Shown in pieces: positions 42,029 to 46,094 of a stretch of DNA of 64,000 bases; position 1 is the stretch's first letter, and every line of letters begins with the position of its first letter. The translations under genes were made by a program, and so were the position numbers. The DNA is from an uncultured Thermococci archaeon. GTDB taxonomy: Archaea > Methanobacteriota_B > Thermococci > Methanofastidiosales > B48-G16. Where the stretch lies: contig CAZQQT010000004.1 in the NCBI GenBank assembly GCA_964595645.1, positions 32,001 through 96,000 of the forward strand, written 5' to 3'. The notes under the pieces were generated by a model. It did not search any database. It saw only the letters and a program-made list of their open reading frames with translations, and was not told where the DNA came from.

Positions 42029-42622
42029 TTATATCTCCTCCATTCTTGTCAGATCTTCATGAATTCTTAATAGTTCATTTATTTCCGATTTTGATTCTAT
42101 TGCGAGATAGGGAATGTGAAATCCCATTGCCAAATGGCTCACACCTTCTTCAACAGCTCTCACTGTATCCCCCTCATGTTCTTTTTCTCGCGCTATACTG
42201 GAGAGGGTATCGAGAGGGATGAGTGTGGGGGTAGCAGTCTCTTCCAGCGGATTCATCTCGTGATCATACACCGTGTCCTTATACACGATTTTTGGAATAT
42301 TTTTCACGAAAATGCCGCCAACATACTGGTAGAGAGGCAATCCGTAAAAGCCAGAGGCCGCTTTCGCGACAGCCAGTGAAAACACGAAACGAACTTCCGG
42401 TTTCTCCGTCACCTCTTCCAATATCGCATCGATAGGCCGCTGTTCAAGGAGACTGAATCCTATCAACTCGGGGAGCACGACATCGACAATATCATCGAGG
42501 GGCTCGTCCGTCACGACACTGCTTTTTCCGTAACTGTTGGTGGAGAATATGTCCACCTCCAACCGATTCTTTCTTTCGTCAGTATATACCTTTCGAATGA
42601 GTACGTCTTCAATTGTTTCCAA
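42029..42622 (-). CDS. Truncated enolase-like protein
   Basis: Enolase N-domain (LEVDI, PELIG..EQ..ID, SLAVAKAAS..LPLYQYVGG) and C-terminal NELLRI; most of the barrel missing; TTG start with GGTGA SD. Confidence 0.8.
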   Translation of the reverse strand: METIEDVLIRKVYTDERKNRLEVDIFSTNSYGKSSVVTDEPLDDIVDVVLPELIGFSLLEQRPIDAILEEVTEKPEVRFVFSLAVAKAASGFYGLPLYQYVGGIFVKNIPKIVYKDTVYDHEMNPLEETATPTLIPLDTLSSIAREKEHEGDTVRAVEEGVSHLAMGFHIPYLAIESKSEINELLRIHEDLTRMEEI

Positions 42623-42746: not shown

Positions 42747-42941
42747 TTATACAGTATGTTTCAAGGCATCATCGATGAGCTCCACGTGGGTGAGAATCAT
42801 TCGTCTGCAACAGTACCTCTCCAGTCCTAGATCGTCCAGTACACCCTTTGGAGACTCACCTGCCTCCACGCGCTCTTGATACTTTGCATAGAGGTGCCCT
42901 ATCGGTTTTCCACAGGTAAAACATCGCACAGGTATTATCAT
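42747..42941 (-). CDS. rpoN: RNA polymerase subunit N/Rpo10 (start corrected to 42941)
   Basis: [12 protein letters not shown]...[11 protein letters not shown]. Confidence 0.98.
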
Positions 42942-43354: not shown

Positions 43355-43783
43355 TTATCCTCCTAAGTGTGTAGATAATTCTTTTATTGTTATATGTTTA
43401 AAGGATCTCTCTTTATTTAATTTTGCATCCTCTATTATTACTATCTCTTTATCTGCGAGTTCTTTGGGGATTTTCTCGTGTACTCTCAATCGGCTCAGTG
43501 CATCTCTTCCCCGTGGTTTCCTGTAGGGCAGCATACCTCGTACTGCTCGTTTTACAATTCCCTCTGGACTTTTCGGATAATGTGGGCCTCTTCGCGGATT
43601 TGCGAGGTTACTTCTATCCACTCGTTGTTTGTACCGTGCGAAAATGTCCTCTTTCCTTCCTGTGATCACCATCGTTCCTGCATTGACGATGGTAACACGT
43701 TCTCCGTCCAATAGTTTCTTGGCTGTCACAGAGGCAGTTCTTCCCAAAACTAGGTTTTTTCCATCTACAATCATATGAATCAC
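43355..43783 (-). CDS. rpl13: 50S ribosomal protein L13
   Basis: [14 protein letters not shown]. Confidence 0.97.
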
Positions 43784-44142
43784 TCCATTATCCGTACATT
43801 CTCTCCCTGAGGATTTCGTTCTACGAGCTCCTCGATAGTAATCGCCTCTCCTCCGTTCTTTGTGATCTCATTGTACGCCTTCTTTGAGAATTTCAATGCA
43901 GAGACCGTCACACTGTGATCCAATCGTCCGGCACCAAGAACTTTGCCCGGCACCACCACGGTCTCCCCTTCCTCAGTGTATTTCTCAAGTTTCCAGAGAT
44001 TCAACTCTGCCATTCTCCTTGTAGGTCTGCGTAATCTCTCAGAAATTTCTACCCAAAGACTCACATCGTCATCATAGCCTTTCTTCCGTAGATCATCCAC
44101 GAGTCGTATCAATCGTGGGTTTGTTTTTCTCAGTTTTTTCAT
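43780..44142 (-). CDS. rpl18e: 50S ribosomal protein L18e (ATG 44142 after GGTGA)
   Basis: KTNPRL, VVVPGKVLG, NPQG. Confidence 0.97.
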   Translation of the reverse strand: MKKLRKTNPRLIRLVDDLRKKGYDDDVSLWVEISERLRRPTRRMAELNLWKLEKYTEEGETVVVPGKVLGAGRLDHSVTVSALKFSKKAYNEITKNGGEAITIEELVERNPQGENVRIME

Positions 44143-44151
44143 GTTATTCAC

Positions 44152-44185
44152 CTTTGAACTCAGCGCATTTTCTGCTCGCTCAAAG
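44152..44185 (-). promoter_or_regulatory. Kink-turn hairpin in the 5' leader of the rpl18e operon
   Basis: CUUUGAGC-GA-GCA-GAAAA-UGC-GCU-GA-GUUCAAAG; TATA (TTTATAAA) at 44214-44221; SD at 44148-44152. Confidence 0.7.
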
Positions 44186-44265
44186 CATCGCTGACACGTT
44201 TCTTATAGAAGCCTTTATAAAGATTGTGGTGATGGTCTAAAACTATCTCAGTAAAAATTGAAATT

Positions 44266-45438
44266 TTATGGCCCTATCTCCCCTTCTTCCTCTATTTTTC
44301 TGACCAATGCCTTAAAAGCTTCTATTACTCCTGTTCCCTGTAGTGCATCTGCGGGGAACACTTCTGTTGATTGGGGCAAATTCATTCTCTCTTTTATCTC
44401 TTCAACACTGAGTGCATTTTGTATATCCTGTTTATTTGCAACGATGATGAGTGGAAGTCCTTTTGCCCTTGTTTTTTCAAGCATGGACTTTGCACGGGGG
44501 AACGAGTTAGGTTTTGTCGAATCTACGAGGAGAAAGATGCCCATTGCTTTGTCCGCGATGAAGTTAAGTATGGGATCGAATCGAGCTTGACCGGGGGTGC
44601 CAAAAATATCCGCTGAGATGTCCTCGTGTTCTATATGTCCGTGATCGAGAGCAATTGTTGTCCCCATTCTATCAACGGAGACAGACTGCGTTGAAAGTGC
44701 ACGGACGAACGTAGATTTTCCTGCATTGAAGGGGCCGGTAACAAGCAGTTTCGGGATAAAGGCCTTTATTCCACCCGGCCTATCAATTTTGAACATTAAA
44801 TTTCCCTTCGTCTTTTCCCGCCAGTCAACCTTTATTACCCCATAATACTGACCCATCACCACGCGTTCACCTACACCACCAACCTTTACAATGGCATTTA
44901 TTGCCTCGTGCAGCATTTTTTTTGTCTCTTCTGAGTACGGCCAGTTTGTAAAGTTATAGATACCCACAGATTCATGCTCAGCGAAGAGTTCGTTCCATTT
45001 TTTTATATGGCTTGCTGCCTCTTCTCCACAGAGATCGAGAATGGATGAGAGTGAGCCGAGTGTTACTGTTGTACCTGACTCTTCCAGTATTTCCTCGATG
45101 ATATCATCGTACGAGACAATATCGCTTGGTTCTTCAATGACATAGGGGGCACTGCTTTTGCACCCCATGAGGGAAGAGTACGCATCCACTATCGCAAAGT
45201 TATCCATATATTTGGACAGATCCCATCCATACTCCTTGAAATTTTCTTTTACAATCTCGGGATCGGACCGTGTTGTGATCAATACTGCTTTTTTTCCATT
45301 TTTTAGGTTATGATAGAGGCTCTGCATCCCGAATATCTCTCCCTCTACCTCAGGTTGAATGAGATACATGAGACTTTTTCCTTCGGGTATACCGCCCCCA
45401 AGAAAGTTATCCAACCGTGGTATGCCTGAATTTATCAC
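44266..45438 (-). CDS. Degenerate KaiC/RAD55-like domain fused to an MglA/CvnD-like small GTPase
   Basis: SGIPRLDNFLGGGIPEG start with no Walker A; C-terminal GPFNAGKST, TTIALD, GTPGQARF, NKQD. Confidence 0.85.
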   Translation of the reverse strand: MINSGIPRLDNFLGGGIPEGKSLMYLIQPEVEGEIFGMQSLYHNLKNGKKAVLITTRSDPEIVKENFKEYGWDLSKYMDNFAIVDAYSSLMGCKSSAPYVIEEPSDIVSYDDIIEEILEESGTTVTLGSLSSILDLCGEEAASHIKKWNELFAEHESVGIYNFTNWPYSEETKKMLHEAINAIVKVGGVGERVVMGQYYGVIKVDWREKTKGNLMFKIDRPGGIKAFIPKLLVTGPFNAGKSTFVRALSTQSVSVDRMGTTIALDHGHIEHEDISADIFGTPGQARFDPILNFIADKAMGIFLLVDSTKPNSFPRAKSMLEKTRAKGLPLIIVANKQDIQNALSVEEIKERMNLPQSTEVFPADALQGTGVIEAFKALVRKIEEEGEIGP

Positions 45439-46094
45439 TACGTCTCCCCCACACGAAGTTCTCCATTTTCTATTTTGAACGTAACTTCTTTGTTTATTCC
45501 AAAGCCTCTAAAAAGCATTTTGTTCTCTTTTATTTCCGTGATGACATCCATTAATTGATTAATAGATTTTGTTTCAACATCTTCTGGCGTTTCCTCCAAA
45601 GTAAATATTCCGTATCCATCCAGTTTCTTTATTCTGCCGGTGAGTATATGAAGGAATCTGAATACTGTTTGCGCATTTGAATACATTAAAATTGTAGAGA
45701 GTGAATCGATAACTATCCGTATGTCCTCGTAATTCTTTACATTCCAAAGCTTTTCTAAAAGATTGCTGTATTTTACAGAAATACCAGTGAGATCTACAGA
45801 GCTCGAAACATATTTTATCCATTCACTATCTTTAATATCTGTTTCCATCCTCAAACTCTTCGAAATGCAGTCAACAACACCCAGTCCTTTTGTCTCTATT
45901 CTTTCAGAAAACCACTGCTGAATCTTTTCTCCGCTGTCCTTTGTCGAAATATAAATGATAGCCTCATCTCGTTCTAGAGCATCTAAACAGAGATATTTTG
46001 TGATCGTTGAGATTCCAGAAAGAGTAGATCCAGAAAGAAGAACAATGCTTCCTTTCGGAACATCGAGATCAAGATCAGTGTAAAACATTGTCAT
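45438..46094 (-). CDS. Degenerate KaiC/RAD55-like (RecA-fold) protein
   Basis: GSTLSGIST (Walker A Lys lost), VDLTGI, IDSLSTILMY, FRFLH. Confidence 0.82.
   Translation of the reverse strand: MTMFYTDLDLDVPKGSIVLLSGSTLSGISTITKYLCLDALERDEAIIYISTKDSGEKIQQWFSERIETKGLGVVDCISKSLRMETDIKDSEWIKYVSSSVDLTGISVKYSNLLEKLWNVKNYEDIRIVIDSLSTILMYSNAQTVFRFLHILTGRIKKLDGYGIFTLEETPEDVETKSINQLMDVITEIKENKMLFRGFGINKEVTFKIENGELRVGET

Follow-up and report, generated by a model that had tools for sequence, protein, structure and literature searches.

The question raised by this locus is what purpose is served by a hairpin that takes up nearly the whole short 5' untranslated region of a ribosomal protein operon in an archaeon of the order Methanofastidiosales, an order of uncultured methanogens, and which ligand, if any, recognises it. 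The operon lies on the minus strand of a window of 64,000 nucleotides, the window being the whole stretch of DNA analysed, to which all positions below refer. In the initial annotation the hairpin was read as a canonical kink-turn (k-turn) through which L7Ae, or a ribosomal protein encoded in the operon, would control translation.

The four genes downstream of the hairpin were assigned with Pfam to eL18, uL13, uS9 and RpoN. The first of them, rpl18e (43780..44142, minus strand), encodes 120 amino acids and was identified by its Pfam match, by full-length alignment with solved archaeal eL18 chains and by alignment to Haloarcula eL18. Because the solved chains align from residue 1, the ATG at 44142-44140 is its real start. 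It is followed on the same strand by rpl13 (ATG at 43775), rps9 (43353-42946) and rpoN (ATG at 42941, end at 42747), with intergenic gaps of at most 5 nt and with each Shine-Dalgarno sequence embedded in the 3' end of the preceding gene. The 3' end of rpoN is abutted by a tRNA-Pro(GGG) gene (42746-42671, minus strand), called by ARAGORN, for which the Rfam tRNA model was silent at its gathering score. Between the RNA polymerase subunit genes and rps2 there is an open reading frame of 197 amino acids (42029-42622, minus strand), with only a weak, sub-threshold match to Enolase_N (E 4e-5; 24 bits, where the cutoff is 35). Archaeal ribosomal protein clusters usually carry eno in this position, and the reading frame may encode a shortened enolase-like protein.

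On the other side of the operon, the neighbouring gene, a fusion of KaiC-like and Arf-type GTPase parts, terminates at 44266 with a T-run after it, and the rpl18e operon therefore has its own promoter. The neighbouring region (44266-46094, minus strand) encodes two overlapping proteins, one of 390 amino acids that combines a KaiC-like domain with an Arf/Ras-type GTPase, the other a KaiC-like/DUF7504 protein of 218 amino acids. In many archaea the position upstream of the rpl18e operon is occupied by rps13-rps4-rps11-rpoD.

The features listed in the initial annotation, i.e. the TATA box, the hairpin segments, the Shine-Dalgarno sequence, the ATG and an upstream UCAGCG, were all located on the minus strand as it had described them. 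The TATA box of the operon promoter, TTTATAAA, is at 44221-44214, and together with its flanks (ACCACAAT-TTTATAAAGG) it is kept in five genomes of the same family. From the usual archaeal spacing between TATA box and start we infer that transcription begins at about 44191, approximately 23 nt 3' of the box; the hairpin begins approximately 28 nt 3' of it. The outer helix is formed by the 5' strand CUUUGAGC (44185-44178) and the 3' strand GUUCAAAG (44159-44152), both identified from the sequence, by folding and from pairing statistics. Enclosed between the strands are, in 5' to 3' order, the junction dinucleotide GA (44177-44176), the inner hairpin GCA-GAAAA-UGC (44175-44165; sequence and folding), the linker GCU (44164-44162), and G161 and A160 (44161-44160) directly ahead of the 3' strand. 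The first G of the Shine-Dalgarno sequence GGUGA (44152-44148) is also the last base of the outer helix, and in every family the Shine-Dalgarno sequence begins 0-2 nt past the helix. The earlier description of a structured leader that fills a short 5' untranslated region and abuts the Shine-Dalgarno sequence of a ribosomal protein and RNA polymerase operon was supported.

Folded alone, the 40 nt of the hairpin adopt this structure as the minimum free energy structure (-12.0 kcal/mol, z-score -1.5). When the fragment is extended to include UCAGCG (44194-44189), an alternative pairing wins, with -12.7 kcal/mol and a z-score of -0.6. With these z-scores the thermodynamics alone is therefore unremarkable, and the element is regarded as more than chance because it is conserved and not because of its folding energy. 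The alternative pairing corresponds to a mutually exclusive fold suggested earlier, in which UCAGCG pairs with the complementary CGCUGA of the core (44165-44160). This suggestion held in part: the complementary segment is present and is used in the longer fold, but the four remaining leaders of the family lack it, and it is located at or upstream of the predicted transcription start, which it straddles.

For the study of conservation, rpl18e was located in 40 relatives and the upstream DNA was compared. The motif was found directly upstream of rpl18e in all the 33 Methanofastidiosales genomes having the gene, distributed among four families. A plain MAFFT alignment of all the leaders (A1) misaligned the 3' strands, and a model built from a single family (R1) matched junk from whole loci; therefore loci of 68 nt were taken and realigned. 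The covariance model R2, built on a structure-guided alignment, produced one strong match per genome in 31 of the 33 relatives within the order, with E-values from 1e-15 to 4e-3. One of the two genomes missed is an assembly without rpl18e and the other carries the motif when inspected by eye. The class-level search included 133 genomes, and the phylum-level search covered the same 133. No genuine R2 match was found in 97 Thermococcales; four marginal matches among them (E 0.002-0.006) were rejected as chance, and none of these adjoins rpl18e. Also the second-best match in the window genome (53297-53333, E 0.11) was rejected, the similarity being to promoter and Shine-Dalgarno sequence only. 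In the R2 searches the element occurred once per genome and at rpl18e only. The regions upstream of rpl18e in seven Thermococcales and about 70 other archaea differ from the motif, and across diverse archaea GCGAG/GGCGA was not enriched upstream of rpl18e (13 of 73 regions, with 10 +/- 2.7 expected). The leader is a conserved RNA element specific to the order Methanofastidiosales.

Alignment of the rpl18e upstream regions and a test for covariation had been proposed as a check in the initial annotation, and in the leaders the pairing of both helices is kept by compensatory changes. In alignment A5, which was fitted to the model and consequently favours the structure, 98% of the cells contained standard pairs, and 5 of the 11 pairs had changed on both sides in a compensatory manner. 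When the 3' partner was moved by 1-3 columns in a slid-register control, pairing fell to 8-45%. RNAalifold independently predicted the same two helices, and the parse of the individual sequences concurred. The number of independent covariation events is small because there are only four families. Counted from the junction outward, the first pair of the outer helix is C-G and the second G.U, both invariant (21/21). The other pairs covary between the families, the third being A-U, G.U or G-C, the fourth G-C or A-U, the fifth U-A, C-G or U.G, and the sixth U-A or C-G. The inner hairpin opens in every leader with G-C and then C-G; beyond these pairs its stem, 3 to 6 bp long, differs between leaders in a compensatory manner, and the loops are unrelated in sequence.

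The invariant positions are 5'-(A/G)GC-GA-GC, A160 directly ahead of the 3' strand, the C-G that closes the outer helix and the G.U next to it, and a plain helix would need none of them. The junction GA, within GCGAGC, is present in 24 of the 24 distinct leaders. G161 is replaced by U in six of the 24, among which are most of the leaders of one family. Loss of the stems and of the paired GA/GA dinucleotides had been named as an observation that would speak against the leader; the stems and the 5' GA are kept, but the 3' GA is UA in these six leaders. The same pattern bears on whether a protein is involved at all. In three families the predicted 5' end coincides with the hairpin or is a few nucleotides away from it; for two of these, other than the window's own, the usual TATA spacing predicts a start no more than about 2 nt from the hairpin. 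The Shine-Dalgarno sequence begins within the last base pair of the hairpin. A protein-independent 5'-terminal structure could in such a place affect mRNA stability or access to the Shine-Dalgarno sequence, either as a thermometer or by protection from 5'-3' exonuclease. However, the stability of the hairpin is ordinary, and the unpaired GA, the A and the wobble stay invariant while the paired positions drift. Invariant unpaired nucleotides and an invariant wobble amid drifting pairs are the signature of a specific ligand, and we regard a protein-independent function as highly unlikely. In all, the element is very probably a genuine, conserved regulatory leader of the protein-binding type.

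A standard k-turn has a three-nucleotide bulge between a Watson-Crick paired C helix and an NC helix, the latter opening with tandem G1b.A1n and A2b.G2n pairs; the -1b:-1n pair is usually C:G, and G1b is the most conserved position. The window sequence can be drawn as a textbook example, with a C stem (the inner hairpin) ending in C:G, the three-nucleotide bulge GCU and tandem G.A/A.G pairs at the opening of the NC stem (the outer helix). Such a drawing is possible also for most of the relatives, the tandem pairs being compatible with the sequences of the window and of 18 of the 24 leaders. If L7Ae, the gene of which is present in the genome, bound this k-turn, the internal loop would be folded, the hairpin would become more stable, and the Shine-Dalgarno sequence would be masked, as happens on the mRNA of L7Ae itself. 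In two studies, L7Ae represses its own mRNA and binds nop5 mRNA through k-turns in untranslated regions, and folds any k-turn whatever its 3b:3n pair (PMC5539422, PMC6298567).

The family of leaders fits this reading less well than the window genome does. The linker is three nucleotides long in only four of the 24 leaders and otherwise consists of 0, 2, 4 or 5 nt; its sequences include GCU, GCC, GU and GAAA, and GAU was never found. Also G1b, that is G161, is the position replaced by U. The -1b:-1n pair is C:G (C165:G175) in all the leaders, whereas the described L7Ae k-turns of untranslated regions have a GAU bulge and none has C:G at -1b:-1n (PMC6298567). The invariant C-G (3b:3n) and the invariant G.U (the fourth NC pair) have no role in k-turn recognition. 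The element is single in each genome and confined to rpl18e, and the genes it would regulate are rpl18e, rpl13, rps9 and rpoN, not l7ae or a gene for an sRNP protein. The paper on RIP-seq with L7Ae (PMC5539422) does not mention L18e in its main text. Control by L7Ae through a k-turn is thus decidedly unlikely, and the canonical k-turn postulated in the initial annotation did not prove to be the conserved feature. Its wider proposal, that either L7Ae or a ribosomal protein of the operon acts as the regulator, would seem to survive in its second half, since a ligand encoded in the operon fits the leaders best.

In the same genome, the leader upstream of L7Ae-S28e-L24e (contig C1, 1400-1470) contains GGAUGAGGUGA, in which a box-C-like GAUGA is fused to the Shine-Dalgarno sequence. 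A self-regulatory k-turn was not evident upstream of this L7Ae gene, the sole CUGA partner being located 5' of a TATA-like box.

The invariant positions find counterparts in 23S rRNA, at the junction where helix 27 (H27) closes and helix 28 (H28) begins. In the Rfam archaeal LSU consensus this junction reads guGgC-GA-GgcU ... uggA-GuCac, and the last pairs of H27 are C-G and then g.u. The 23S rRNAs of the class Thermococci follow GG(C/U)-(G/A)A-G ... (G/A)A-(G/A)UC, and the G.U pair is present in all of them. The junction in the window's own 23S rRNA, GGU-AA-GAUU ... AA-AUC, departs further from the leader than the archaeal consensus does. The GA at 44177-44176 corresponds to the RA junction that follows the 5' strand of H27, and A160 to the adenine just before the 3' strand of H27 (A746 in H. 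marismortui). The likeness comprises about 10 nucleotides and concerns sequence and secondary structure only. A copy of the H27/H28 junction accounts for the free length of the linker, for the tolerated change from G to U before the invariant A and for the invariant wobble, none of which the k-turn model explains.

This junction appears to be a site of contact with eL18. In the H. marismortui 50S subunit, L18e forms two base-specific pockets, with Lys63, Leu65 and Glu42 on A659 and with Glu42, Asn44 and Leu65 on A746 (PMC3009514, Table 4), and both pockets hydrogen-bond to the base (PMC3009514). These two numbers were mapped on the 23S rRNA of a related Haloarcula species instead of the deposited H. 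marismortui sequence; the extruded A96 of Kt-7 and the GAAA tetraloop at 691 gave an offset of +5, and one extra loop base between 700 and 745 in most Haloarcula species served as a third calibration point. A659 is the first base after the 5' strand of H27 (GGC-A), and A746 is the base before its 3' strand (A-GCC). The two purines in the eL18 pockets are therefore the neighbours of the closing pair reproduced in the leader, and their counterparts in the leader are G177 and A160. Also the protein side is conserved: Glu42, Asn44, Lys63 and Leu65 of Haloarcula eL18 (numbered without the initiator Met) align to E46, N48, K67 and L69 of the eL18 encoded in the window, all four being identical. In yeast, eL18 is an early domain II protein (PMC12825303). 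Nothing specific on helix contacts or autoregulation of eL18 emerged from literature searches.

A degenerate two-strand pattern of the leader had 14 matches in the genome's own rRNA, in comparison to about 10 in shuffled sequences, and H27 is not singled out by similarity of sequence on its own. With such a chance frequency the argument therefore rests on a match falling at the eL18 site, which was recognised after the data had been seen. An R2 search of the rRNA loci gave no match, and the insert of about 85 nt from H28 to H31 exceeds the span of the model. Another similarity, CGAGG...GAGUU at LSU 616-656, was rejected, as the Rfam structure assigns its two strands to separate helices.

Two further ribosomal proteins, uL13 and uS9, are products of the operon, and one of these, or an unlinked factor, might be the ligand instead of eL18. 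According to the r-leader survey (PMC7247131), L13 is a verified repressor of rplM-rpsI in E. coli, and further L13 leaders have been predicted. The nucleotides in the base-specific pockets of L13 (G2815) and S9 (G1347; PMC3009514), however, are in regions without a match to the leader pattern, in distinction from the eL18 site. No Rfam L13 leader scored here, even at E-values up to 10, and the hairpin loop, which could have mimicked a tetraloop contact, is not conserved. We consider such a ligand unlikely.

The leader is thus most likely a decoy of the rRNA site of eL18 and not a generic k-turn for L7Ae, to judge from the comparison of the sequences. The leader would represent the 23S junction in miniature: the outer stem would stand for H27, with the same ending of C-G and then G.U, the invariant GA for the junction, the inner hairpin for H28 and the invariant A ahead of the 3' strand for the adenine in the same position in rRNA, while the short and variable linker would replace H29-H31. 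When eL18 is in excess of free 23S rRNA, it would bind the leader and clamp a helix ending 0-2 nt from the Shine-Dalgarno sequence, and the loading of the 30S subunit on rpl18e would be blocked. Tight translational coupling would then transmit the repression to uL13, uS9 and RNA polymerase subunit N. To this reading, in which surplus eL18 binds an rRNA look-alike beside the Shine-Dalgarno sequence and represses the rpl18e-rpl13-rps9-rpoN operon, we assign a probability of roughly 0.55. The fuller proposition, that the leader is a minimal H27/H28 mimic of about 35 nt and the first eL18 autoregulatory RNA, jointly setting the synthesis of the four proteins across the order, has in our estimation about an even chance of being correct.

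The leaders are probably produced in different ways within the order. In the fourth family, a tRNA gene is located immediately upstream and there is no promoter, in the position where the window's family has its TATA box. The tRNA gene is tRNA-Leu-like, and 10-20 nt separate its end from the rpl18e leader; such an arrangement was seen also at loci of Thermococcales and Halobacteria. No promoter intervenes between the tRNA-Leu-like gene and the leader. The operon mRNA is probably released there by tRNA processing.

Other types of conserved leaders were observed upstream of rpl18e outside the order. In Thermococcales the leaders have the form ACGCUCACCCCG...UGUCGGUUUCCC...G(C/U)GAGA, the last part in a fixed position, and follow a tRNA gene. 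In Methanomethylophilaceae there is a hairpin CGACA-GCCUCACCCAA-UGUCG, followed by GGAGAGUCAG. Both groups show CUCACCC, complementary to Shine-Dalgarno sequences of the GGUGAG type, and these elements are possibly independent leaders of L18e operons. Two loci from metagenome-assembled genomes of Methanomicrobia / Methanospirareceae have, in the 60 nt before rpl18e, three to four tandem units of AGGCGAA(A/C)GAA, then AGCGAGAAG and the ATG. GGCGA(A/G) is also the 5' strand of the H27/H28 junction, and the units could be repeated eL18 sites or a coincidence.

At gathering thresholds, Rfam 15 had no match in the window except a tRNA, and when the threshold was relaxed to E-values up to 10 for 43900-44500, the sole match was a chance sR30 inside coding sequence. 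The earlier statement that no described eL18 leader was known agrees with the contents of both Rfam 15 and the r-leader survey (PMC7247131); the survey has archaeal motifs only for S15, eL15 and L4, and none of its 20 motifs involves rpl18e. The present leader shows a conserved, covarying structure in the 5' untranslated region, abutment to the Shine-Dalgarno sequence and likeness to the rRNA site of a protein encoded in the operon, which are the marks of an r-leader, the last of them frequent in such leaders without being required. To our knowledge very few archaeal cis-regulatory RNAs have been described, and none for eL18. If the proposed role of eL18 is true, a new ligand would be added to the feedback loops of ribosomal proteins, and ribosome production would be tied to an RNA polymerase subunit at one control point. 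The recognition of the domain II site by eL18 could also be studied on the leader as a minimal RNA, and the two would form a new compact and orthogonal RNA-protein pair. It would further follow that what looks in a single genome like a textbook k-turn may in fact copy another rRNA junction.

Among the known systems, the autoregulation of L7Ae by k-turns in the 5' untranslated region (Daume et al. 2017, PMC5539422; Huang, Ashraf and Lilley 2019, PMC6298567) is alike in that a small stem-loop, with G/A-rich strands and an internal loop that is asymmetric, is placed beside the Shine-Dalgarno sequence of an archaeal ribosomal protein mRNA. It is alike also in the proposed mechanism, the binding of the protein occluding the ribosome binding site. 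The L7Ae elements have a GAU bulge, standard tandem G.A pairs and a -1b:-1n pair other than C:G, and the gene regulated is that of the ligand itself. In the rpl18e leader, by contrast, conservation extends neither to the length of the bulge nor to G1b, the features of H27/H28 are kept instead, and the operon does not include L7Ae.

The bacterial rplM-rpsI (L13-S9) operon, autoregulated by L13, is according to the survey (PMC7247131) comparable in its orthologous uL13-uS9 pair, in translational feedback at the first cistron and in the coupling of downstream genes. In the archaeal operon the leader belongs instead to rpl18e, which stands ahead of rpl13; the structures are unrelated, and the likeness to rRNA points to eL18. 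As far as we know, eL18 occurs in archaea and eukaryotes only, and bacteria are without it. The eL15 candidates of Euryarchaeota and the S15 candidates of Halobacteria and Methanomicrobia (Eckert and Weinberg 2020, PMC7247131), which are likewise sequence-based, resemble the rpl18e leader as lineage-restricted structures of the 5' untranslated region with covariation and a partial likeness to the rRNA site, but the ligand (eL18), the structure and the lineage (Methanofastidiosales) are different here. The rpl18e leader would, slightly more probably than otherwise, belong with the rRNA-mimicking leaders of ribosomal proteins, eL18 being a new ligand among them. In Methanococcus, ribosomal protein L1 binds a small copy of its 23S rRNA site in the mRNA and so represses its own operon, a case that has been proven biochemically. 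The rpl18e leader differs from it in the protein, the rRNA site and the organisms, and is like it in being, as proposed here, an archaeal mRNA mimic of a 23S rRNA site.
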